Below, piece after piece: positions 1,094 to 28,100 of a stretch of DNA of 64,000 nt. Within the stretch, counting starts at the first letter, position 1. Each line of letters starts with the position of its first letter. A program made the translations under genes and the position numbers. Under the pieces are notes generated by a model. It ran no database searches. It was not told the DNA's origin and saw only the letters and a list, made by a program, of their open reading frames with translations. Origin of the DNA: Acidobacteriota bacterium (lineage in GTDB: Bacteria; Acidobacteriota; UBA890; WLXD01). Where the stretch lies: the NCBI GenBank assembly GCA_963666215.2, contig CAXWPL010000003.1, forward strand, positions 352,001 to 416,000, given 5' to 3'.

Positions 1094-1592
1094 CGCTCTG
1101 GCTCAACGTTGCGGTGGCAAGCCGGTGAAAGGCTTCCTCAACGTGATCCCCGGTTTTGGCGCTGGTCAGAAAAAAGGGCAACCTCGCCGACTCCAGGCGA
1201 CTGTAGGCGTCGCTGCCCAGCTGCCAGTCGCTCTCGAGGTCGCTCTTGTTGAGCGCAACAATCGACGGCACGTCGCCGACCGCTTCGACCACACGATCTC
1301 GCAACTCGAAGGCGCCGTCGAGCGTGTCGGGACGCGTGCCGTCGACCACATAGAGAATCGCGGCCGCGCCGCGGAGATAACTGACTCGCAGATCGCCACC
1401 GTTGCCCCGGCCCTCGAGGTCCCAGAGCAACAGGTTGACGTCGGTGCCACCGAGATCGACCGGCTTACGATCGATTTTCACCCCAACGGTGGATAGATAT
1501 CTCTCTGAGAAAATCGAGTCGACGAACTGTCGCACCAGGCTGGTCTTGCCTGTGGCGTGAAACCCAACCATGCAGATTTTCTTCTGGATCAA
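1086..1592 (-). CDS. Ras/Rab-like small GTPase
   Basis: G1 GFHATGKTS, G2 YLSTVGV, G3 WDLEG, G4 NKSD, G5 TSAK; TTG start at 1592 with GGAG upstream. Confidence 0.88.
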   Translation of the reverse strand: MIQKKICMVGFHATGKTSLVRQFVDSIFSERYLSTVGVKIDRKPVDLGGTDVNLLLWDLEGRGNGGDLRVSYLRGAAAILYVVDGTRPDTLDGAFELRDRVVEAVGDVPSIVALNKSDLESDWQLGSDAYSRLESARLPFFLTSAKTGDHVEEAFHRLATATLSQSDD

Positions 1593-1690
1593 GGCTCCGC
1601 TTCCTCGGCGGCGAGCGTGAGGATGAACGATACGCTGCGATTCAGCGCTCCCGGCTCTGCACCGGCGGGCGCAGTGAGCGGCTCGGGTGG
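1589..1690 (-). pseudogene. Possible C-terminal remnant of an OmpA-like protein
   Basis: Minus frame reads EPLTAPAGAEPGALNRSVSFILTLAAEEAEP* (NRxVxF resembles the OmpA C-terminus); its stop overlaps the GTPase TTG (TTGA); no start codon. Confidence 0.4.
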
Positions 1691-1767
1691 TCACCCGGCT
1701 CCGACGGTCAGATGCGGCCCAAAGCGGACAGCAGCGAGTTTCCCTGCCATCCCTCGAGTGCCCACGG

Positions 1768-2327: not shown

Positions 2328-3329
2328 ATGAGCAATCGATGGGCAGACTTCGGCAAGGTCGCCGTCCGCCAGATGGCCAACGTGAAGCCAGGCGAGACCT
2401 TCCTCGTGCTTGCCGACACCGCCACCGACAGAGACTTGGCGGCGGCCTCGCAGCAGGCCGGAATCGACGTGGGCGCACGTGCCGCGCTGTTGACCATCCC
2501 GTCTATGGACACCAGCGACGCCAGCGATCTTGATCCGGCGACGATTGCCGCGATCGCCACGGCCGACGTGATTCTGGGCCTGTGCGCCTCGACGTTCGTC
2601 GAGAAGGAGTCGACGATGAGGGCTCTCGAAGGCAAGCTGCGCATCACGTCGACCAATATCGAGGGGATGGAGGACTTCGTGACCGAGGGCATCCGCGACG
2701 TCGACTACCCACTCATGATCGAGATCGGCAACAAGATCGGCGAGCTGTGGATGAAGACCGAGCTGTGCCGCGTGACCTCGCCTTTTGGCACCGACATCAG
2801 CTTCGATATGCGCGATCGGCCCATCGACGTCGGCCACGGCATCGTGAAGAACCCGGGCGAGGCCGACTACTTCCCTGGCGTCTCGGTTGCGAACGCTCCC
2901 ATCGAGTCGACGATTCAGGGGACGATCGTCGTCGATGGCAACGTCCCGCCGGGGCGCTTGGTCGAAGAACCGGTGACGCTACGGGTTAAGGACGGGATCA
3001 TCGTGGCCTTCGAGGGTGGCGCCGACGCCGATGCCGTGCGCGAGTTCTTCGAGGCCAGCGGCGACCCCATCGCCACGCATATCTGCCACTTCACGCTCGG
3101 GCTCAATCCGCGTGCGCGCACCTCGGGCAGCATCCACCAGGACGAGCACGTGCTCGGTGCCATCACCTTCGGCTTCGGCGCGCAGAACGCCATCTTCGGT
3201 GGCAACGTCCCGCCCTGTGGCGTGCACTGCGATGTGGTGTTGACGACGGGCAAGATCGAGATCGACGGCAAGGTGATGCTCGACAACAACGTGCTCAGCG
3301 AAGAGATGGGACTCGGCGGGATCGCTTGA
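2328..3329 (+). CDS. Aminopeptidase T (M29/COG2309)-fold metalloprotein, possibly a NicX-like dioxygenase
   Basis: GTDISF, GTIVVDG, HFTLGLNPRA...DEH..GAITFGFG...HCD C-terminal motifs. Confidence 0.7.
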   Translation: MSNRWADFGKVAVRQMANVKPGETFLVLADTATDRDLAAASQQAGIDVGARAALLTIPSMDTSDASDLDPATIAAIATADVILGLCASTFVEKESTMRALEGKLRITSTNIEGMEDFVTEGIRDVDYPLMIEIGNKIGELWMKTELCRVTSPFGTDISFDMRDRPIDVGHGIVKNPGEADYFPGVSVANAPIESTIQGTIVVDGNVPPGRLVEEPVTLRVKDGIIVAFEGGADADAVREFFEASGDPIATHICHFTLGLNPRARTSGSIHQDEHVLGAITFGFGAQNAIFGGNVPPCGVHCDVVLTTGKIEIDGKVMLDNNVLSEEMGLGGIA

Positions 3330-3393
3330 TCGGAGCTGGTTGGATTCGAGCCAGCGCGAGTCGGGGTCGTGACGTGAACGGCCCCGGCGGCTG

Positions 3394-4218
3394 ATGTCGT
3401 CGGTCTCGGAGCTGCTGCGATCGTTCCGCCACCCCGGCTTCGGGCTGGTGTGGTCGTCGATCTGTCTGAACGGCTGGTCGTCACACGTTTCCACCATCGC
3501 GATCAGCTGGCTGGCGCTCGAGTTCACCGGCTCGCCGGTGGGTGTGGGGATTGCCCTGGCTACAAGGGTTCTCCCCAGGCTCTTCCTGGCGATCCCGTTC
3601 GGCAGCCTGTCGGATCGTCGTGACCGCCGGGTCTTGCTACAGGCAACCAACACGATCGGCGCCGGCATGGCGGCCTTGGCCGCCATCGCCAGCCTCCAAG
3701 GCTGGTTCGGCTTCGGGAGCGTGATCCTGGTGGCGACGTTTGTCGGGGTGTTCGACGTTGCCGAAACGACGCTTGCCAAGTCGTTCGTCTACGACGTCGT
3801 CGGACCCGACGACGCCGTGAACGGTATGGCTCTCGAGCAGCTCGCCAACAAGCTGTTCGGCGTCATCGGAGGGGTCACAACCGGCATTGTGATGTCGCTC
3901 TGGGGCGGCGTCGGCGCCTTCGTGATGATGTCGATCGCCTACGGCTGCAGCGCCTTCCTGTTGATGCTGATGCCGCGCGTAGCTCCCACCGCCGGCTCGT
4001 TTCGCGAAGTGGCTTCGTTGGCCGACGGGGAAGCCGACGACGAGCAGCCAGCGATCTGGGAATCGATGCTGCAGCTCCTGCAAACACCGTCCGTGCTCGT
4101 GTTCGCTGTCATCGCGCTTGCCGGCGAAGTGTTCGCCTACTCGCACGAGGCGCTCGCCCCCTCCTTTGCGCGCGACATCCTCAACGTCGGCGAGCGTGGT
4201 CTCGGCCCAGCTGGCTGA
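3394..4218 (+). pseudogene. MFS transporter, C-terminally truncated
   Basis: GSLSDRRDRR motif A and about 7 TM helices; ends after ARDILNVGERGLG, lacking the last ~5 helices. Confidence 0.75.
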
Positions 4219-5923
4219 ACAGTATCCAATCGACAACGAGGGCCGCAGGCTGACGCTGGTGCCCACGCTGCAGGCGCGGGTGAATCCGAACGTGCGCGAC
4301 GGCTTCGTGCAGGCAATCGGGCTCATGGTCGTCATCGTTGGCTTGGTACTGCTCATTGCCTGTGCCAACGTCGCCAACTTGCTGCTGTCGAAGGCAACCG
4401 GGCGCCGCCAGGAAGTGGCGATGAAGCTGGCGCTCGGGGCGCGCAGCGGCCGCCTGCTACGGCAGTTGCTGACCGAGAGTGTGCTGCTGGCGCTCGTCGG
4501 CGCGGCGGTCGGGCTGCTTGTTGCCCAGTGGACAACAGGGCTCTTGATCAGAGCGATTCCACCAACGCCGTTCCCCATCGCGTTCTCCTTCGATCTCAAC
4601 GGCTCGGTGCTAATGGCGACGCTCGGCATTGCCGTCGGCACCGGGCTGATCTTCGGCTTGGCGCCGGCGCTGCAGGCGTCGCGCGCCGACGTTGCGTCGG
4701 TGCTCAAGAACGAGTCGGCAGCGTCCATGGGAGTCGACCGCCGTTTTGGCCTGCGCAACCTCCTGGTTATCGGGCAGGTCGCGATCTCGCTGATACTGCT
4801 CGTTGGCGCCGGACTGTTTATCCGCAGCATGCGCTCCGCACAGGCGATCGATCCAAGGTTCGTGATCGACGGCGGCCTGGTGGTGACAATGAACCTCGAT
4901 CTCGAGGGGTACACGCCGGAGAACGGCCGTGCGTTCCTGCGCGAGCTCACCGAGCGGGTGGGAGCCACGCCTGGGGTGGAATCGGCAGCCGTCGCTCAGT
5001 CGCTCCCCCTGAGCCTGTTCGGAGCCGGTCTGTCGCGGACAGTCTTCATCGAGGGAGCACCAGCAGCCAACGAAGAAGATGGTGTTCTGGTTGGCGTCAA
5101 CAGCGTCGGCCTCGGGTTCTTCCGAACGATTGGCATTCCGATCGTCCAGGGCCGTACCTTCGACGTCACCGACAACGTCGACAGCGCGCGCGCGGCGATC
5201 GTCAATGAAGTCATGGCGGAGACGTTCTGGCGCGGAGAAAATCCGGTCGGCCGCCGCTTCATGTACCACGGCCAGCTCGACCGCCCGCTCACCGTGGTGG
5301 GAGTCGCCGCCTACGCCAAGGTGGGCACGCTTGGAGAAGACCCGACGCCTCTCATCTACATGCCGCTGGAACAAGAGTACAGCGGCGGCATCTTCCTGCA
5401 GGCGCGAGTCGAAGGTGAGCCTCTGGCGCGCGCCGACGACGTCCGGCGCTCTATCCGCGAGCTCGATCCGGAGATGCCGGTGTTCGGCATCACCACGCTG
5501 CGCGATCAGCTCGACGCCTCGCTCTTCCCCTCCCGCGTGGGCGCCGGCATGCTGGGCGTATTCGGCCTGCTCGGTCTGACCCTCGCGGCGATCGGCCTGT
5601 ACGGCGTGATGAACTATTCGGTGGCACGACGAACCCGCGAGATCGGCATTCGCATGGCGCTCGGCGCCAATCCCGCCGGCGTCCTGTCGCTCGTGCTCCG
5701 ACAGGCCCTTCTTCTGGTGGGCGTGGGTTTGCTGGTCGGCGTAGTCCTGGCAGCGCTGATGGGCCGTCAGATGGCCAGCTTGCTCTACGGTGTCAGTGGC
5801 ACCGATTTGCTCGCGTTCGGAGGGACTTCTCTGGTACTTCTGCTTGTGGCCGCTGTAGCCAGCCTGGTTCCGGCACTGCGCGCGACCCGCGTCGATCCGG
5901 TACGGGCGCTGAAATTCGAGTAG
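4196..5923 (+). pseudogene. MacB/FtsX-type (ADOP-like) ABC permease lacking its N-terminal part
   Basis: LVLLIACANVANLLL, LLRQLLTES, RTREIGIRMALGA, RATRVDPVRALKFE; begins mid-periplasmic domain at SAQLAEQYP. Confidence 0.8.
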
Positions 5924-20591: not shown

Positions 20592-22018
20592 TTAGCTCGC
20601 TGGCTGCTGCTGGCTGGCGCAATGCATGCCGCCACCGTAGTAGTTGATCCCCAGCGTATGGAGCTGGACGATCTCGCGGTCGGGGAACAGCTCAGCGAAG
20701 ATCTCGCGTGCCCGCTCGTCCTTCTGCCTTTGCGACTCGGGCATACCCTCCTGCCAGTATTTCGGGATCAGCACGAGCCCGTTGGTGACCAGGTAGTTGA
20801 GGTAGCTGGCGGCAGCCACCTGGTACATCGTATCGCCCGGCTTCAGGCCAGCGGCGTCGAACTCGCTCTTGCCGCGCTCGTAGCGCTCCTCGGTCAGCGT
20901 GTATTCGCGCCGCAACGGATCGACCTCGGGTAACGCGATACGAATGATCTCGAAGAGGTTGCCATCTTGGTCGGTCTGCTGCCGCAGCGCGAGCAGGTTG
21001 TTCTCCAGCACGTCGTAGTTGAGCTCGTTGACCGGGTTGTCGTGGCGTTCCGCCTCCGGCACTTCGGCAAGCAAGATCGTCGACGAACCCACAAAGCGGG
21101 CGTACTCATCGAGATGACCATTGGCTCCACCGCCCGTGTAGTTGGCCGCAATCGGGCCAGGAAGCCAGAGGTCCTCGACAAGCGGCTCGGGCACCCAGAC
21201 GATCTTGCGCTGCCCCATGACTCGCAGATATTCGGTTTCGATCTCCTCGAGCGAGTGATCCGGGTTGCGCTGCAGAGTGGTCCAGCGGGTCACCATCAAG
21301 GTGCCGCGGCCGTTGACCGTCATGCCGCCACCCTCCCGGTCGAGATCACCTCGAGGCCGAGCATGTCGGCGACGTAGCGGTCGGTGTCACCGGTCAAGCG
21401 CCGACGGCGGGCACGCTCCGAATCTTCATCATCGTCGGTCTGGCTCGCCCGGCCGTAGCTCGTCCAGCGGAAGTCGACGACCTTCGTGTCTCCGGCGCTG
21501 TTGCGCACGAACAGCGGGCCAGGGTCGCGCATCCAGAAGTAGGGCAACTCGTGGACGTGGAGCGAGACGCGACTGCCCCAGGCGCCTTCGGCGCGTAGAC
21601 GCTCCTCGGCCTCGACCGCTGCATCCTCGGACTCCACGAAGACCTCCACATCAACATGGTCGCGGAGCACACGCACCATCTCGACGGTCATCGCGTTCAT
21701 CGTTACCTTGCGCTCCGAGCTCCTGCCGCCGAGCCCCTCCCCTACCCAGGCCACCCAAACCGCATCGTGAGGCTCCCACTCCGCTGGAAAGCTATAGTGC
21801 TCGGGATCGACGACAGCCTCGGGCTCGGCGGGCGGGATTCCTTCAGAGGAGCCCGCCGGGGCGGCGCAGCCGACCGAAGCCGTCGCGGTGAGAACCACAA
21901 CCGCCAGGCCAACCGCCATCGATCGCCGACTCGCGCCCATTGCCGTCTCCATCGCCCGAGCACATCCAGAACCGCCCCAGCGCCTCAGCCCATCGGACAT
22001 CTTGTATCCCCTCGTCAA
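20592..22018 (-). pseudogene. Agmatine deiminase / peptidyl-arginine deiminase family, frameshifted
   Basis: FPAEWEPH and WMRD.GP in 21320-22018; EGGG...GHLD, SYLNY and GGMHC in another frame; frame switch near 21338. Confidence 0.85.
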
Positions 22019-22168
22019 GTCTCCAGGTCGTGCTTCAACTACATCGGCCGCACACTACACAAGATCCCCAATCACTCCAACGGGGGCCTCCCGCGCGCCG
22101 GGCTCGGCCAATCGATCGTGGCGACTCGCAAGGCCGGCGAGGCCCGCGGACGGCCTCGCGGCCACAGA

Positions 22169-22891
22169 CTAGAAGCGGGGCTCTCGCGTGAAGAGATAGC
22201 CGGCGCCGCGCACGGTGTGAAAGTGTTGCGGCCGATGCGGATCCGTCTCGAAGCGGCGCCGCAGTCTCAGGACGAAGTTGTCGATCGTGCGATCGGTGGG
22301 ATAGAAGCCCGCACCCCACACGCGGTCCAGGATCTCGTTCCGCGACACCACCTCGCCCTCACGGTCGGTCAGGAGTCGCAAGATCGCGGCTTCCTTGCTG
22401 GTGAGAAAGTGCTTGGCGCCGTCGGGACCGCGGCCGACGTAGCGCACCAAATCGACCTCGCTTTCGCCAAACGTCAGCGGCGGTGGCGGATCGGAGTCAG
22501 ACGGTCGGCTGCGCCGCAGAATCGCCGCCACGCGCAAGAGCAGCTCCTCGAGTCGGAAGGGCTTCGGCAGGTAGTCATCGCCACCCGCGGCAAGTCCCCG
22601 GATGCGATCGTCGGGATCGCTCCGGGCGGTCAGAAAAAGAACCGGCACCTCGTTGCCCGCCTGCCGCAATCTCTCGCACACCGAGAAGCCGTCGAGCCCC
22701 GGAAGCATGACGTCGAGGACGATGAGATCGAAGCGCTCGCCGGCACGCGCCAGTGCATCGATACCGTCGTGCTCCACCGCCACCGCATAGCCTTCAGCCT
22801 CGAGGTTGCTGCGGATCTCATCCGCTAGGCCGGGCTGATCCTCGACGACGAGCAGCCGGCTGGCAACGCTCTCGCCTGCGGACCGACTCAC
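22169..22891 (-). CDS. OmpR-family response regulator
   Basis: LLVVED, LDVMLP, FLTA, DDYLPKPF, TVRGAGY; GTGA overlap with the kinase stop. Confidence 0.92.
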   Translation of the reverse strand: MSRSAGESVASRLLVVEDQPGLADEIRSNLEAEGYAVAVEHDGIDALARAGERFDLIVLDVMLPGLDGFSVCERLRQAGNEVPVLFLTARSDPDDRIRGLAAGGDDYLPKPFRLEELLLRVAAILRRSRPSDSDPPPPLTFGESEVDLVRYVGRGPDGAKHFLTSKEAAILRLLTDREGEVVSRNEILDRVWGAGFYPTDRTIDNFVLRLRRRFETDPHRPQHFHTVRGAGYLFTREPRF

Positions 22892-23979
22892 GACGGTGGT
22901 GCCGCGAGCGGCCAACGAACCTCGAACGTGGCACCGTGTCCGTGACCCGGTGACGTTGCCGTGATGCCACCATCGGACAGAACGACAACTTCCCGAGCGA
23001 TGTGCAAGCCCAGGCCAGCACCGCTGCCGCCGCGGCGCAGCTCGTCCCCGGGTCGGTAGAACTTCTCGAACAGCAGATCGACATCGTCGGGATCGAAGCC
23101 GCAGCCGTTGTCGCGAACGACAACAGAGACGTCGTGCGCGCCGCGTGTCGCGTCAACCGACAAGCGGGGCTGCTCGGTCTCCAGCAGGGCCTCCAGCGCG
23201 TTGTCGAGCAGGTTGCGCATGACAGCTCGCAGCGCTTCGTCGTCGGCCATGACCCAGAGGTCGCCAGGAAGGTCGACGGAGAGATCGACTCCGGCCTCGC
23301 CGCAGTTGTCCTCCAGGTTGCGCATGACCGGTGCCAGAGCCTCCTGGAGGTGGAGCGCGGCCGGACGCAGAACGAAGCGTCCCTCGCCTAGACGGACCGT
23401 GTCGAGCAGGTTGCTGATCATCGACTCGAGCCGCAACAGGTTGCGCACGATCCGCGACGTCTTGACGCCGCGTTCTTCGGGGGCAAGGTCGTGTCGTTGT
23501 AGGCCCTCGGCCGCGAGCAGCGCCGTTGCCAATGGGCTCTTGAGCTCGTGGCTGGCCGCTGCCAAGAAGTTCTCTTGTCGCCGTCGCAGCACGGCATCCT
23601 GTTGGACCGCCCGCGCCACGACACTCACCGCGCCGAGCAGGACGAGCAGAAAGAAGCCCCCCTCCCAGCCGTATTGGTTCAATCGGTGCCAACGCTCATC
23701 TGCCTGTGCGGTGTCGCGCTGTGGATCAACAATCACGCGGCGACCGTCAACTCGAATCGCCGGCAGCACCCTCTCGACCGCCGAGGGTGTCTCTCCGAGC
23801 TCGAGAAGCCGCTCGGCGGCTCTCACCTGTTCCTGGTCCGAGCGGTCTGCGCGCTCCTCCACCAGGGCGATGAACCGCCACTGATCGAGCATCCACCAGG
23901 CTACCTGTGCCGCGCTGATGATCAGCAGCACACCGAGCCCGATGCTCAGAAAGCGAGTCGTACGGCGTTTTGTCGGCAA
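22888..23979 (-). CDS. Sensor histidine kinase (2 TM)
   Basis: SHELKSP H-box, NLLDNA, DNGCG, FEKFYR, GAGLGL. Confidence 0.92.
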   Translation of the reverse strand: MPTKRRTTRFLSIGLGVLLIISAAQVAWWMLDQWRFIALVEERADRSDQEQVRAAERLLELGETPSAVERVLPAIRVDGRRVIVDPQRDTAQADERWHRLNQYGWEGGFFLLVLLGAVSVVARAVQQDAVLRRRQENFLAAASHELKSPLATALLAAEGLQRHDLAPEERGVKTSRIVRNLLRLESMISNLLDTVRLGEGRFVLRPAALHLQEALAPVMRNLEDNCGEAGVDLSVDLPGDLWVMADDEALRAVMRNLLDNALEALLETEQPRLSVDATRGAHDVSVVVRDNGCGFDPDDVDLLFEKFYRPGDELRRGGSGAGLGLHIAREVVVLSDGGITATSPGHGHGATFEVRWPLAAPPS

Positions 23980-24071
23980 GGAGGACCTCGAACAGTTGGC
24001 CAGAGCAAGCTCTCAACGATCGCCACGATTCTAGCGGCGTCGCCTGCTCCGGCCTCGCTGCCCGCCGCCTT

Positions 24072-27065
24072 CTAGAAGCGCACCGTGGTACCCAAGCGAA
24101 TATCGCGCCCAATGCCCGGCGTCCCGAAGCGCGCATTCTCGTAGCTGCGATCGGCCAGGTTACTGATCGCCAGGTGCAGCTCCAACGGCTGCCCGGCGAC
24201 CCCAGTGGCCCAGGTTGCCTGGAAATCGTGGAGCACGTAACCCGCCGTCGCCTCGACGCCCGTCGGCACGCGATCACGATCGCCGTAGATGCGGGTGAAC
24301 CAATTGGCGCGCAGGCCGAGCTCCGGCCGGCGCCACTCGGCTCCGAGAACGAGCTTGTCGTTGGGAATCTGCAGCAACGGCTCTCCAGTGGCGTTGTCCT
24401 CGCCACGAGTCCGCGAGAACGATCCCCGCAGAACGATGTCGCGCTGCGGACTCAGGTCAACGGAGGCTTCGAATCCCGTCATCTGGGCGTCGAGGCGATT
24501 GGTCGCCTGCCACAGCTGGATCTGAGTGCCTCCGGTCACAGGAAACTCCGAAGTGAATACCGGCAGCAGCTCGATGAAGTTCTCGACGTCCGCACGCCAC
24601 AGCGAGGCACGCGCCGAAACGCGCCCACGACGGAACCTCAGGCCGCCGTCGAAGTTACGGCTGGTTTCGGCGACAAGATCCTCGTTGGGCAGAAACAGCG
24701 CCAGAAAAAAAACGTCTTGCGTCAAGGGAAAGGCGAAGTGGGTGCCCGTCAGGAAGAGCTCCTGGAAGAAGGGCGCACGGAACCCACCGCCGTAGCTGGC
24801 CGAGGCGAAGAGACCCTCACTGAGCTGGTAACTCGCCCCCAACTTGGGCGAAAGGCGATCGACCTTCTGGGAGCTGAGCTCGACAAGGTCCGGCTTGCTG
24901 TTCCAGCGGTCGTAGCGCAGGCCAGGAACCACCGACAGTCGTCCGTCGAACAGCGACAGCTCGTCTTGCACGAAGGTGCCGAGCTGCGTGCGGCTGCCCG
25001 ACGGGAAGAATGCGTGGGCATCGCCGTTGCGAACGGCGTCCTGGCGCTCCTGCACGAGCTCGAAGCCGTAGGTGACGGCGTGCGAGCCGCCCACGAGCGC
25101 CGTGTTGCGCGCATCGATGCCCCAGGTGCGGTAGCCGATGTCGTCAACGCGACCGTCGGCGATCCGGGACTCGTCGATCTTGGTCTCGTTGACGTAGACG
25201 GTGGCGTTGAGGCTGTTGTCCCACCAGTTCTCCCCTGTGCGGGTGTAGCGCGCGTTGACGCCCGCCGAGCGAGTGGCGCGGTCGATCAACTCGGCAGCGC
25301 CGACATCCATCAACGCGAGGTTCGTTGACGATCTGCCTTTCTGGCGAAAGTAGTTGCCCGAAAGGCGCAGCAGGCCGGAGCTACCGAGCGGCGTGTGCAG
25401 GCGGGCGTTGAAGTCGTTGATGTCCTCCTCGGCCTGTTCCAGATTGGACTGGACGCCGGCAATCTGAATCGAGCCGTCGTTGCGCCTGCCGGTGTAGGAG
25501 GCCATCCAGCTGAGGCCCGAGTCGGACCTACCGTAGAGACGAGGAGCGACGGTCCACTCGCCGTAGGCCGACGAGTAGGTCGAGCGCACCTGAGCGCCCA
25601 GGGTCTGGCGCGGATCGAGCAGGTCGCCCGGCGCGCGGGTGGTGATCGAGATGACGCCACCGATCGCCCCCGAGCCATACAGCGCTGAGGCCGGACCCTT
25701 GACGATCTCCACCTTCTCGATGTCATCGGTGTCGAAGAAATACGTGCCCCGGTGACCCGAGTTGAACTGCGCCACACGAGCTCCGTCGCGGAGCGTGAGG
25801 ATTCGCTGGTCGTCGAAGCCACGGATGTTGGGCGTTTGCCCGAGGCGTCGAGGCGACTCGCTCATCTCGACACCCGGCTCATAGCGCAGCACGTCATCGA
25901 GCCCACGCGCCTGCGTGCGGTCGAGATCATCGCGATCAATCACCGTCACCTCGCCAGGCACCCCGAGCGTGTCGCGCTCCGTGTGCGTTGCCGCCACCGT
26001 GATGCGCTTGGAGTAGGGCGCCAGCTGCAGCTCCACGTCGAGGTTCAACGAAGATCCAGAGGAGATCTCCACGGCCTGAGCCCAACGCCGGAAGCTGTCG
26101 ACATCGACCACCACGAGGTACGTGCCTGGACCGACCTGTTCGAAGCGAGCCAGGCCCTCCTGGTTGGTCGTACGTGAGATCACCTCGTCTCCCAATCTCA
26201 GCGAGACGGGTATCGATGGCGCCAACCGACCGTTGGGTGAGTAGACGGTCACCTCGACGATGGCTGACTGTTGCGCCTGCGCGACGGGAGCCACCGACGC
26301 CACCAGCATCACAGCGCCCACGACGGTCGCGGCTGTTCTGACCGCGGGTCGGGCCGGCGACGGCGACCGTCGTCGAACGTTGAGCCAGTAACCGGTCCAG
26401 ATCAGGAGGATTCCGATGATTTCCATGACGTACAAGACCTCCGTGCGCCCCATGCGACTGGCCGCACCGCCGATGCCCGGCAGAATTGCGCCGGATGCGA
26501 TGAACACGTTGCCGACGAACCGATCGCGGGCAACAACAGCACCGCTGCCGTCCCCCCGGGACGCGCGGTAGAAACGCCAAGCGGAGTAGATGGCTCCGCC
26601 GATCAGAAAGATCACGGCGTAGGTGTTGATGAAGGGGCTGAACGCCCGTACCCATTGCCAGGCGAACGCGCGTCCACTCGGCAGGTGGGGGTCCACCACC
26701 GCCATGTTGATGGGGCTGGCGATCACGCACGCGGCGGCGACTGTGACCACCGACACCAGAGCGATCGTCAGGCGCCGCGCTACCCGCGGTCGAAGCAGCA
26801 GCCAGACCGTTCCCTGCGCCAGCGGCGCACCCCCGAGGAGAGCCCCGACCACGTACCAGAACTTGAACATCACCGGGCTCCAGCCGAAGAGCGTGAACCA
26901 GCTCTCCGCAAAGGTCCCGAGCCCGTAGACGAGAATGCCAGCGCTCCACCAGAGCAGGTGGTTACCGCCACCCCGGTACAGGTAGCGGCGATACACCACG
27001 ACGGCAAACACGAACGAGATCACGGTCGTGGCGATCGGTAGGTAGTGAACAGCGGTGGGTTGCAT
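24072..27065 (-). CDS. Fusion: 7-TM membrane domain + internal signal peptide + heme-type TonB-dependent receptor
   Basis: Seven hydrophobic helices in aa 1-230; RRR...VVGAVMLVASVAPVAQA|QQ; plug NIRG, FNSGHRG, EIVKGPASALYGSGAIGG; FRAP...H...NEDL; C-terminal TVRF. Confidence 0.85.
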   Translation of the reverse strand: MQPTAVHYLPIATTVISFVFAVVVYRRYLYRGGGNHLLWWSAGILVYGLGTFAESWFTLFGWSPVMFKFWYVVGALLGGAPLAQGTVWLLLRPRVARRLTIALVSVVTVAAACVIASPINMAVVDPHLPSGRAFAWQWVRAFSPFINTYAVIFLIGGAIYSAWRFYRASRGDGSGAVVARDRFVGNVFIASGAILPGIGGAASRMGRTEVLYVMEIIGILLIWTGYWLNVRRRSPSPARPAVRTAATVVGAVMLVASVAPVAQAQQSAIVEVTVYSPNGRLAPSIPVSLRLGDEVISRTTNQEGLARFEQVGPGTYLVVVDVDSFRRWAQAVEISSGSSLNLDVELQLAPYSKRITVAATHTERDTLGVPGEVTVIDRDDLDRTQARGLDDVLRYEPGVEMSESPRRLGQTPNIRGFDDQRILTLRDGARVAQFNSGHRGTYFFDTDDIEKVEIVKGPASALYGSGAIGGVISITTRAPGDLLDPRQTLGAQVRSTYSSAYGEWTVAPRLYGRSDSGLSWMASYTGRRNDGSIQIAGVQSNLEQAEEDINDFNARLHTPLGSSGLLRLSGNYFRQKGRSSTNLALMDVGAAELIDRATRSAGVNARYTRTGENWWDNSLNATVYVNETKIDESRIADGRVDDIGYRTWGIDARNTALVGGSHAVTYGFELVQERQDAVRNGDAHAFFPSGSRTQLGTFVQDELSLFDGRLSVVPGLRYDRWNSKPDLVELSSQKVDRLSPKLGASYQLSEGLFASASYGGGFRAPFFQELFLTGTHFAFPLTQDVFFLALFLPNEDLVAETSRNFDGGLRFRRGRVSARASLWRADVENFIELLPVFTSEFPVTGGTQIQLWQATNRLDAQMTGFEASVDLSPQRDIVLRGSFSRTRGEDNATGEPLLQIPNDKLVLGAEWRRPELGLRANWFTRIYGDRDRVPTGVEATAGYVLHDFQATWATGVAGQPLELHLAISNLADRSYENARFGTPGIGRDIRLGTTVRF

Positions 27066-27067
27066 CG

Positions 27068-27118
27068 AGAGCTCCCTAGAACGGCGTCGTACGACGACTT
27101 CGGTTCTTTACGAGCTCT
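27068..27118 (-). promoter_or_regulatory. Imperfect inverted repeat overlapping the RBS of the fusion gene
   Basis: mRNA sense AGAGCTC-gtaa-AGAAC-cgaagt-CGTC-gtac-GACG-cc-GTTCT-agg-GAGCTCT-cg-ATG. Confidence 0.45.
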
Positions 27119-27153
27119 GATTGAACCAACGCGGCGGGGCCGCTATGTCATCC

Positions 27154-27624
27154 CTACGTCACGAGATCGGAATCTCGATCAACGCCGTCTTTCGCCGCCT
27201 CGCTGGCGTCGGTAGCGATCGTCAGCTGCGCCTCGGTGGGAGCATCGAACTCCAGCCTGATCGAGTCGCGCTGCAGCAGGAAACGGGTCCACAGCCCTAG
27301 GATCGTGCCGAAGGGAACAAACAGGCACAGGAGAACCACGGCGATACGGCAGAACCGATAACGCTGGCGACGCTGGATGAAGAAGCTGGCGCGCAGAATC
27401 GTCACCGACCACCAGATCACGAGTATCGCGAAAATCGTCGTCAGCGAAGTCGCGACCAGATCGATGAGCGCCACCAGCAGGCTCTCGGAGCCGAGAGTGC
27501 TCAGCGCGCCCAGCATCGGGCCGCACATCAGCAGGCCCATGAAGATGAAGAAGGCCCCGATCACCCGCATGACAAAGACCATGTTGCGCAGGTGACCGTG
27601 CAGACTGCTCGGTCGCAGGTTCAT
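27154..27624 (-). CDS. Small membrane protein (C-terminal PFGTILG motif)
   Basis: AAGGAG RBS before ATG 27624; 3-4 hydrophobic segments. Confidence 0.65.
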   Translation of the reverse strand: MNLRPSSLHGHLRNMVFVMRVIGAFFIFMGLLMCGPMLGALSTLGSESLLVALIDLVATSLTTIFAILVIWWSVTILRASFFIQRRQRYRFCRIAVVLLCLFVPFGTILGLWTRFLLQRDSIRLEFDAPTEAQLTIATDASEAAKDGVDRDSDLVT

Positions 27625-27698
27625 ATGAAGAGCTCCTTGGCGGTCGAGGAGACTAGACTGGCGCTTCCCGAAACCATCGAGCAACTGGCGATCTGTCC

Positions 27699-28100
27699 GT
27701 GCAACGAAACACCCTTAACCGGAAGCTAGCCGCTGCGGCAACCGTCGGCAACGCTCTCGCCCTCCTCGCCACGGCTTGTATACCCAGCGCCGACCCGGGC
27801 TCCCCGGCCGACCATTGGCCCGGATTCCTCGGGCCCACGGGGATCGCGGTAGGCCATCATCCGGACCTGCCGGAATCCTGGTCGGCGTCGCAGAACATCG
27901 AGTGGAGCGCGGAGATCCCGGGCAGGGGCTGGTCCTCGCCGGTCGTCTGGGGCGATCGAGTCTTCCTGACCGCCGAGACCAGCGAGCAGACGCTGAAGGA
28001 GCCGGGGTTCGGTGTGGACTTCGGCAACGAGTACATCGCCGAGCTCCTCGCCGAGGGGCGCAGCGAGGCCGAAGCCTCCGATATGGCCGACGCCCGCCGG
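27699..28100 (+). pseudogene. N-terminal fragment of a PQQ-like beta-propeller lipoprotein
   Basis: ATAC lipobox-like, WPGFLGP, LPESWS...NIEWSAEIPGRGWSSPVVWGDRVFLT; similarity lost after ~28100. Confidence 0.75.

Follow-up and report, generated by a model that had tools for sequence, protein, structure and literature searches.

Outer-membrane receptors are normally made as separate precursors, each with its own N-terminal signal. Among those that depend on TonB, the haem receptors of the HmuR/ShuA/HemR type, covered by the model TIGR01785, are marked by a histidine in the plug, a FRAP box, a histidine between the boxes, an NPNL box and a C-terminal phenylalanine. In this study, we describe a 64,000-nucleotide stretch of an Acidobacteriota genome (assembly GCA_963666215.2, contig CAXWPL010000003.1, positions 352,001 to 416,000; hereafter the window, with coordinates counted from its first letter) in which a receptor of this type shares one reading frame with a preceding seven-helix membrane domain of 230 residues (7TM domain) and has no N-terminal signal peptide of its own. 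Judging from the sequence features presented below, we consider it probable that the product is a natural polyprotein, which signal peptidase I would divide, and that its 7TM domain acts as the inner-membrane partner of the receptor.

The closest precedent for such processing is FbcH of Bradyrhizobium, a single precursor of cytochrome b and cytochrome c1 that is split at an internal signal peptide. The two arrangements share the order of a polytopic inner-membrane protein, an internal signal peptide and an exported protein, with both parts serving one functional system. They differ in that the second product of the window's gene would reach the outer membrane, and in that its processing and the activity of the partner are predicted. 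As to the 7TM domain itself, HisKA_7TM (PF16927) and bundles resembling G-protein-coupled receptors (GPCRs) also have seven helices and an external N-terminus, the latter predicted in our case; the window's domain, however, gives no match to the HisKA_7TM profile at E 10 and has no kinase domain attached. For partner proteins of receptors, a report on Caulobacter (PMC13001220) describes hiuABC, a gene for a TonB-dependent transporter together with genes for small inner-membrane proteins needed for use of the imported substrate. According to that report, these are PepSY/FoxB-like and small protein families encoded by separate genes, regulated by Fur and dedicated to a siderophore substrate, and in these respects they differ from the system described here.

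In the literature searched, neither a fusion that places a receptor after a polytopic membrane protein nor the 7TM family is described. The locus combines a known receptor and a known processing principle in an undescribed, recurrent architecture with an uncharacterized partner family. If the proposed processing is correct, it would be a rare bacterial case in which a single translation product supplies two membranes, and a large β-barrel precursor would be exported co-translationally behind a membrane protein of the signal recognition particle type.

Domain architecture of the fusion protein

The fusion is encoded by a single open reading frame (ORF) of 997 residues (24072..27065, minus strand), whose start ATG at 27065 is preceded by GGGAG on inspection of the DNA and whose translation is uninterrupted by a stop codon until the one at 24072-24074. 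The initial annotation, prepared from the letters and their translations, had described a 997-codon ORF with seven helices, a junction, receptor motifs and a co-oriented kinase and regulator, and this description proved accurate wherever it could be checked. It had also proposed mapping reads across the junction. The stretch was found in 20 sequencing runs of 9 studies, among which no RNA run was listed. Over positions 25900-26900, which span the junction, the contigs of four runs from four studies (one of which may be the source of the assembly itself) carry 0 other letters and 0 gaps, leaving the frame open.

Residues 1-230 (26376..27065, minus strand) make up the 7TM domain. In the hydropathy profile, seven hydrophobic segments precede residue 230 and one more covers residues 244-262, while the AlphaFold model of the domain, computed from a 34-sequence alignment (predicted local distance difference test, pLDDT, 95.1; predicted template modelling score, pTM, 0.90), places helices at residues 5-31, 35-60, 64-90, 93-116, 137-169, 175-204 and 208-230. 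Because lysine and arginine cluster in the loops after helices 1, 3, 5 and 7 (about 18, compared with about 5 in the remaining loops, as counted by eye from the charge map), the sequence fits a topology with the N-terminus outside and the C-terminus inside, in which residue 231 onwards would be cytoplasmic.

The family to which this domain belongs is large and carries no functional name. No Pfam family matches residues 1-235, even at E 10, and no NCBIfam match starts before residue 345 of the fusion protein. A HMMER search of 1.84 billion representative proteins returned 961 relatives at E ≤ 1e-3, 55 of them at 1e-30. The full-length relatives are mostly 220-260 residues long and, where sources name them, are called only "hypothetical protein"; similarly, the nearest clusters in the ESM Atlas are all "hypothetical", and a sequence search of the PDB gave only a chance match to a histone (E 0.082). 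Foldseek found nothing in the PDB below E 1e-3 for the domain, the best rows being GPCRs at E 4.8e-3. A second structural aligner, independent of Foldseek, reported Z values of 12-15 to GPCRs of several classes over 200-227 residues and of 12.9 to an alkaline ceramidase, values of a size that also arises between unrelated helical bundles. The modelled fold reads as a generic GPCR-like arrangement that is uninformative on function. The polar residues conserved in the domain are E54, W70, Y71, R140, N147, Y149, E209 and E215. An internal 3+1+3 duplication of the domain was also considered and dropped, as hhalign gave a probability of 1.65% for the N-terminal half against the C-terminal half.

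The window's own genome (G000; 5 contigs, 91.7% complete) contains a second ORF related to this family. This ORF of 199 residues (G000:C4:611594-611818; locus L002, ORF 1159..1758, plus strand) matches helices 5-7 of the 7TM domain only, at 44% identity and E 3.2e-9. It belongs to no Pfam family and may represent either a remnant or a partial paralogue.

The remainder of the fusion protein, all on the minus strand, is a complete receptor. Its N-terminal extension in the predicted mature form is a CarboxypepD_reg β-sandwich (residues 270-347, 26025..26258; Pfam PF13620, E 3.9e-8; model strands at residues 268-345). A TonB-box-like segment (residues 355-360, 25986..26003), assigned from its position just before the plug, falls within a low-pLDDT region (residues 349-360); V357, A359 and T360 are invariant in an alignment of 23 fused proteins. 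The plug domain (residues 368-471, 25653..25964; Pfam PF07715, E 2.3e-31) and the β-barrel region (residues 566-997, 24075..25370; Pfam PF00593, TonB_dep_Rec, at residues 566-970, E 1.5e-46) complete the protein; a plug and an extended series of barrel strands are seen in the model, where pLDDT values are mostly 80-95. Against TIGR01785 (TonB-hemin) the receptor scores 383.2 bits, above the curated cut-off of 316.85, and against the sister model TIGR01786 it scores 310.5 bits, under that model's cut-off of 323.75. By the NCBIfam rule, its sequence would make it an ordinary member of the haem/haemoglobin receptor family, haem binding being a prediction from this membership.

The motifs on which the initial annotation had based its recognition of a full haem-type receptor are all found: His438 in the plug, FRAP at residues 762-765, His776, N794 with L797, and the C-terminal phenylalanine. 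The second box differs from the usual NPNL, reading NEDL in the window and NPDL in the fused protein of a genome from a different genus (G003; 2 contigs, 97% complete). Within the 23-protein alignment, N794 and L797 are nearly invariant and the plug motifs are well conserved.

Junction, recurrence and origin of the fusion

Between the two parts, residues 231-264 (26274..26375, minus strand) comprise a basic linker and a signal-peptide-like hydrophobic segment. Five arginines lie ahead of the hydrophobic core, and an uncharged stretch of 27 residues ends in AQA and is followed by QQ, with the predicted signal peptidase I site between 26274 and 26273. These elements, from the basic linker through the hydrophobic stretch to the AQA|QQ boundary, had been recognized in the initial annotation, and each is present in the sequence.

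The same pattern extends to other fused proteins. We surveyed the junctions of 65 distinct receptor fusions (P0185 counted once) using a hand-made signal rule with a loose criterion for positions -3 and -1 and without a shuffled control. All 65 proteins have a net basic linker behind helix 7, followed by an uncharged stretch with a median length of 21 residues (range 14-52). A site with small residues at -3 and -1 lies near the end of this stretch in 64 of the 65, taking the form AxA or VxA in 48, and acidic residues usually occur downstream of the predicted cleavage site. In the 23-sequence alignment, mean pairwise identity is 57% for the 7TM domain, 54% for the plug and 38% for the barrel, compared with 22% for the linker and signal segment, which varies in length from 22 to 68 residues and is always in frame. 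For instance, the junctions of the window and of G003 are offset by an indel of 8 residues and have little sequence in common elsewhere, and both remain in frame. Since the sequence changes fast while its physico-chemical pattern stays constant, the junction shows, at the level of sequence, the character of a signal peptide.

Structure prediction and domain boundaries are consistent with this view. In the full-length AlphaFold model, only two stretches of at least 10 residues have pLDDT below 50, residues 234-266 and 349-360, and segment 8 is not packed as an eighth helix onto the 7TM bundle. CarboxypepD_reg begins 5 residues past the predicted cut; a stand-alone receptor at locus L011 is similar, with the domain starting at residue 28, and the predicted mature end of the window's receptor matches that of ordinary receptor precursors. 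Signal peptidase I would be expected to cleave at AQA|QQ.

In the mechanism that we propose, translation from 27065 would produce a seven-helix inner-membrane protein with a cytoplasmic C-terminal tail, its helices being inserted co-translationally. The segment at residues 244-264 would then insert with its N-terminus inside and its C-terminus outside, as a Sec signal peptide, and the remaining chain would be threaded into the periplasm. Cleavage by signal peptidase I past AQA264 would free a precursor of 733 residues (CarboxypepD_reg, plug and barrel), to be assembled in the outer membrane as a TonB-dependent receptor of the haem type. What stays in the inner membrane would be the 7TM protein, carrying one additional helix at its C-terminus; the two products would then arise 1:1, as the initial annotation had proposed.

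The initial annotation had raised the prospect that relatives would have two separate genes and that the fusion would be unique to this assembly; instead, 65 fused clusters were found, with the same synteny in G003. Searching proteins of 548-1745 residues, we identified 81 carriers of the 7TM domain, of which 65, the window's own protein included, are fusions to a TonB receptor (63 with Plug and barrel, and two of 613-614 residues with Plug only). FecCD permeases of the ATP-binding cassette (ABC) type are the partners in two further carriers. Single cases involve an HmuY-family lipoprotein with an internal lipobox (P0217), a periplasmic glycerophosphodiester phosphodiesterase (GDPD) with an internal signal peptide (P0187) and an MMPL/RND-type transporter (P0219). 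The last 11 carriers (P0220-P0230) are proteins of about 1070 residues, 10 of them haem-copper oxidase subunit I (PF00115) and one without a Pfam family, with a distant 7TM copy (27-32% identity) at the C-terminus, which in P0220 stands behind a long non-membrane stretch. Exported partners (receptor, HmuY and GDPD) are always preceded by a signal peptide or lipobox, whereas the FecCD permease, with a first helix that begins on the cytoplasmic side, is attached without any such segment. This difference fits a cytoplasmic C-terminus of the 7TM domain and a working export signal, and it agrees with the topological argument of the initial annotation.

For several of the fused genes, the contig exceeds 1 Mb. 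In a search of 61 genomes of close relatives, G003 has the same open frame, while the gene stands alone, at about 240 residues, in G010, G006 and G035. The fusion of G003 is 63% identical to that of the window over its full length. Downstream of it, in the same order, come counterparts of the kinase (51% identical) and of the regulator (64% identical).

On a tree of 147 7TM domains, the window groups with six fused proteins inside a strongly supported clade of 25 rows, whose remaining 18 rows are stand-alone proteins of the Fidelibacterota type; the 56 other receptor fusions form a separate clade. The approximately unbiased (AU) test on a 55-row subset rejects a single clade of the 23 fused rows (difference in log-likelihood 117.5, p 2.1e-8), a group that was named after the first tree had been viewed. 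With one clade rejected, the fused forms fall in at least two lineages, and the fusion has accordingly been acquired, or has escaped fission, on more than one occasion. It is a recurrent derived arrangement and not the norm of the 7TM family, given that stand-alone genes are commoner and that the usual gene order is receptor and then 7TM.

Two unusual records accompany these results. P0002, a protein of 315 residues that is 71% identical to residues 3-233 of the window's protein, consists of the 7TM domain, the signal segment and only the last receptor strands, and has the look of a fusion that underwent internal deletion. On the tree, locus L016, from a 3.7-kb contig labelled Heimdallarchaeota, and locus L014, from Marinimicrobia, are nearest neighbours with end branches of 0.03 and 0.048. 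The archaeal label of the former looks like a binning error, since its 7TM protein is nearest to that of L014.

Certain features of the junctions weigh against a single cleaved chain and raise the alternative that the two products arise by internal initiation, with the receptor translated from a GTG or another start and the read-through fusion, cut or uncut, being a tolerated by-product. The window contains an in-frame GTG at Val249 (26319..26321, minus strand), the first canonical start codon after helix 7, from which the receptor could be initiated separately, and G003 has a GTG at the equivalent boundary between the n- and h-regions; no other in-frame start occurs at either junction. In addition, 22 of the 65 fused proteins keep a methionine 5-8 residues ahead of the hydrophobic core, which could be a working start or a relic, resembling a former start codon that has been taken up into the frame. 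Nevertheless, the GTG is a weak candidate. Val249 sits inside the hydrophobic core, so that initiation there would give a 16-residue signal without a basic n-region, and no Shine-Dalgarno-like (GGAGG-like) motif lies upstream, which agrees with the initial annotation's statement that neither a ribosome-binding site nor a start is visible before the n-region. Furthermore, 43 of the 65 linkers lack any methionine, and the frame has been kept despite linker indels that span lengths of 22-68 residues. As no stop codon separates the two parts, every ribosome that makes the 7TM domain continues into the receptor, and the fused chain would be made in any case. We therefore regard internal initiation as an unlikely source of the receptor.

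A fusion that stays uncut, with segment 8 as a permanent eighth helix and the receptor either tethered to the inner membrane or non-functional, is far less credible still. Some internal hydrophobic segments do work as stop-transfer or anchor helices, but the roughly 100 residues from segment 8 to the plug are estimated to be too few to span the periplasm, and in the large clade without CarboxypepD_reg this spacer is apparently shorter still, at a few dozen residues. Moreover, the pattern of uncharged residues (median length 21) that lead to small -3 and -1 positions and then to acidic residues is typical of cleaved signals, and the plug, the barrel and the C-terminal phenylalanine show the conservation of functional receptors. 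An artefact of assembly or sequencing, or a locus decaying after deletion of a stop and a start codon, might be suspected from the split PAD_porph gene nearby and from P0002, which keeps the last receptor strands only. This suspicion is refuted for practical purposes by the identity of the junction in contigs of four studies, by the 65 fused clusters, several of them on contigs above 1 Mb, by the same synteny in a second genus, and by 58 invariant columns in the 7TM part together with the conserved plug motifs across 23 fused proteins; the chance that it applies is negligible. Processing of one chain by signal peptidase I thus remains the reading that we favour.

Gene neighbourhoods, haem supply and the proposed role of the seven-helix family

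Stand-alone members of the family were examined in the best 80 loci, with one genome per species. According to record titles, they come from Gemmatimonadota, Fidelibacterota, Acidobacteriota, Rhodothermales, Calditrichota, KSB1, Latescibacterota and others. The initial annotation had asked whether homologs of residues 1-230 stand alone and whether they sit near haem genes or kinases of this type: most do stand alone, and some adjoin HmuY, HemS/ChuX or two-component genes.

Linkage to a receptor was scored with an ad-hoc hidden Markov model built from 27 Pfam-confirmed receptors in the 66 loci that have at least 2500 nt of upstream DNA. A same-strand TonB receptor ORF ends within 400 nt of the 7TM start in 38 of these 66 loci and within 1500 nt in 48. 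In 20 of 20 loci preselected for a large upstream ORF, and hence a biased sample, Pfam detects Plug and barrel directly upstream of the 7TM gene. An HmuY gene stands between the receptor and the 7TM gene in five loci, as a likeness to the HmuR/ShuA/HemR systems, and HemS/ChuX lies beside one of the five. When 14 partner receptors were compared with NCBIfam, the best model was TonB-hemin in 10, TonB-B12 in two and "ligand-gated channel" in one; for the partner receptor of locus L010, NCBIfam gave nothing at E ≤ 1e-20. Among the receptors tested, the TonB-hemin cut-off is passed by the window-type receptor alone. A scan of ten related loci with Rfam found no riboswitch and one tRNA only. At locus L069 (5070..7235, plus strand), the receptor upstream of HmuY and 7TM is split into a Plug-only ORF of 394 residues and a barrel-only ORF of 323 residues.

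Two-component genes are a further element of these neighbourhoods. In the window, a histidine kinase of 363 residues (22888..23979, minus strand) begins 92 nt past the stop codon of the fusion gene and combines HisKA and HATPase_c in one gene. The next gene, whose start overlaps the end of the kinase gene, encodes an OmpR-type response regulator of 248 residues (22169..22915, minus strand) with a receiver domain and Trans_reg_C. The co-oriented kinase and regulator reported in the initial annotation are therefore confirmed on the same strand, with their synteny kept in G003; the fusion, kinase and regulator genes form one unit, and no NCBIfam equivalog model reaches its cut-off for either the kinase or the regulator. 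Elsewhere the associated systems are of other kinds. A HisKA_3/GAF kinase and a LuxR regulator lie ahead of the receptor in nine of nine Gemmatimonadota loci scanned, and in the Fidelibacterota loci L015, L017 and L029 an OmpR regulator and a HAMP/HisKA kinase lie directly upstream of the 7TM gene with no receptor between. One Gemmatimonadota-type locus, L034, has in the kinase position an ORF (3114..4952, plus strand) in which an EF-Tu-type GTP-binding domain (residues 9-286) precedes HisKA_3 and HATPase_c, where the other eight have a multi-helix/GAF N-terminus; it may be an odd fusion or an artefact of ORF calling.

With respect to haem physiology, a genome-wide family search of the window's genome gave no match to ALAD, ferrochelatase or URO-D, three families of haem synthesis, while the genome encodes the haem-copper oxidase COX1 and one FecCD permease, located elsewhere in the genome. 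None of the three families was found in G003, which also carries the fusion. G010, which has a stand-alone 7TM gene, lacks ALAD and ferrochelatase, and G002, without a 7TM match, has all three families; ALAD was found in 46 of 61 relative genomes, a tally that includes G047, which is flagged as unpublished. From their gene content, both fusion carriers look like haem auxotrophs, which would fit a haem receptor, and several genomes of the group formed by G000, G003, G010 and G001 may be haem auxotrophic; this comparison rests on a tiny sample of related genomes. Because neither fusion genome has detectable haem-synthesis genes of the three families searched, the fusion system may supply an essential haem cofactor to its carriers. 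The haem reading of the initial annotation accordingly draws support from TIGR01785, from the HmuY and HemS/ChuX neighbours, from the missing synthesis families in G000 and G003, and from COX1 in G000.

For the 7TM domain, we propose that the family acts as a dedicated partner of the receptors that would most likely move the substrate, here haem or a related tetrapyrrole, across the inner membrane or hand it on, reporting to the kinase being less likely. That it represents the inner-membrane step of uptake is a tentative assignment, a little short of an even chance, and is suggested by the many loci that have a receptor and a 7TM gene with no other permease and by the existence of FecCD fusions. 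With about 960 relatives, no Pfam family and receptor linkage in most loci examined, the family is a concrete candidate for a part of the nutrient-uptake machinery, the nutrient probably being haem, that abundant uncultured phyla of soil and sea would have in their inner membrane. A broader generalization is considerably more speculative and in our judgement rather unlikely to hold in full: that the family is the missing inner-membrane step, by import or hand-over, of TonB-receptor haem (tetrapyrrole) uptake in Gemmatimonadota, Acidobacteriota, Fidelibacterota, Rhodothermota and neighbours, having been repeatedly welded to a receptor, HmuY or an ABC permease, with the welded forms split by signal peptidase into an inner-membrane product and an outer-membrane (or lipoprotein) product.

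The chain might also be cut as proposed and the 7TM domain still be a GPCR-like, periplasm-facing sensor that signals to the neighbouring histidine kinase. Two-component genes adjoin the 7TM gene in three unrelated forms (HisKA with OmpR, OmpR with HAMP/HisKA, and HisKA_3/GAF with LuxR), the fold resembles GPCR bundles at the Z values of 12-15 given above, and there are marginal matches to HisKA_7TM. The latter concern 2 of 34 family members, with a best E of 0.017, and otherwise distant members only (P0048, E 3.5e-4; Atlas score 0.83). On the other hand, the fold similarity is within the range of unrelated helical bundles, and the window's own domain lacks the HisKA_7TM match at E 10, as noted. 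Homology with the multi-helix N-terminus of Gemmatimonadota kinases was dropped at an hhalign probability of 0.65%. Two-component systems also commonly regulate receptor operons without a co-sensor, and the FecCD-permease fusions indicate transport. A sensor for the adjacent kinase is thus a doubtful role for the domain, and a cut chain with such a sensor is a doubtful reading of the whole to much the same degree; some other role takes up the remaining probability.

Several observations weigh against the proposal of a haem-uptake partner made as part of a polyprotein. In 79 of the 80 loci the 7TM gene stands alone, its frame ending no more than 44 residues past the domain, so that fusion is not needed for function, and in 17 of the 66 loci scored no receptor ORF is present in the fetched flanks. 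TonB-hemin scores for 13 of the 14 partner receptors are 132-228 bits, under the cut-off, and the substrate of these partner receptors may not be haem. The wider 7TM family has no conserved histidine, cysteine or methionine of the kind typical of haem ligands, and the domain is also fused to GDPD and MMPL, partners without an evident haem link. In the window's genome, HemS, HmuY and the PF01126 haem oxygenase are absent. Furthermore, G001 has none of the three haem-synthesis families and no 7TM match, which counters a strict link between 7TM and auxotrophy, and G006 has a stand-alone 7TM gene together with all three families.

Further features of the window

A scan of positions 21900-27900 found 0 promoter-like sites and 1 terminator-like site, which lies inside the kinase gene and is below the counts for shuffled sequences. 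Rfam matches in the window number 0, and no B12 or thiamin riboswitch was found there. Directly upstream of the fusion and on the same strand, an ORF of 176 residues (27154..27684, minus strand) has several hydrophobic segments and matches no Pfam or NCBIfam family. On the other side of the unit, a PAD_porph gene (agmatine/peptidyl-arginine deiminase type) is split into two adjacent ORFs within 20592..22018 (minus strand). One half, at 21320..22018, covers profile positions 2-113 and the other, at 20592..21323, covers positions 136-321, which suggests a frameshift or a genuine split.

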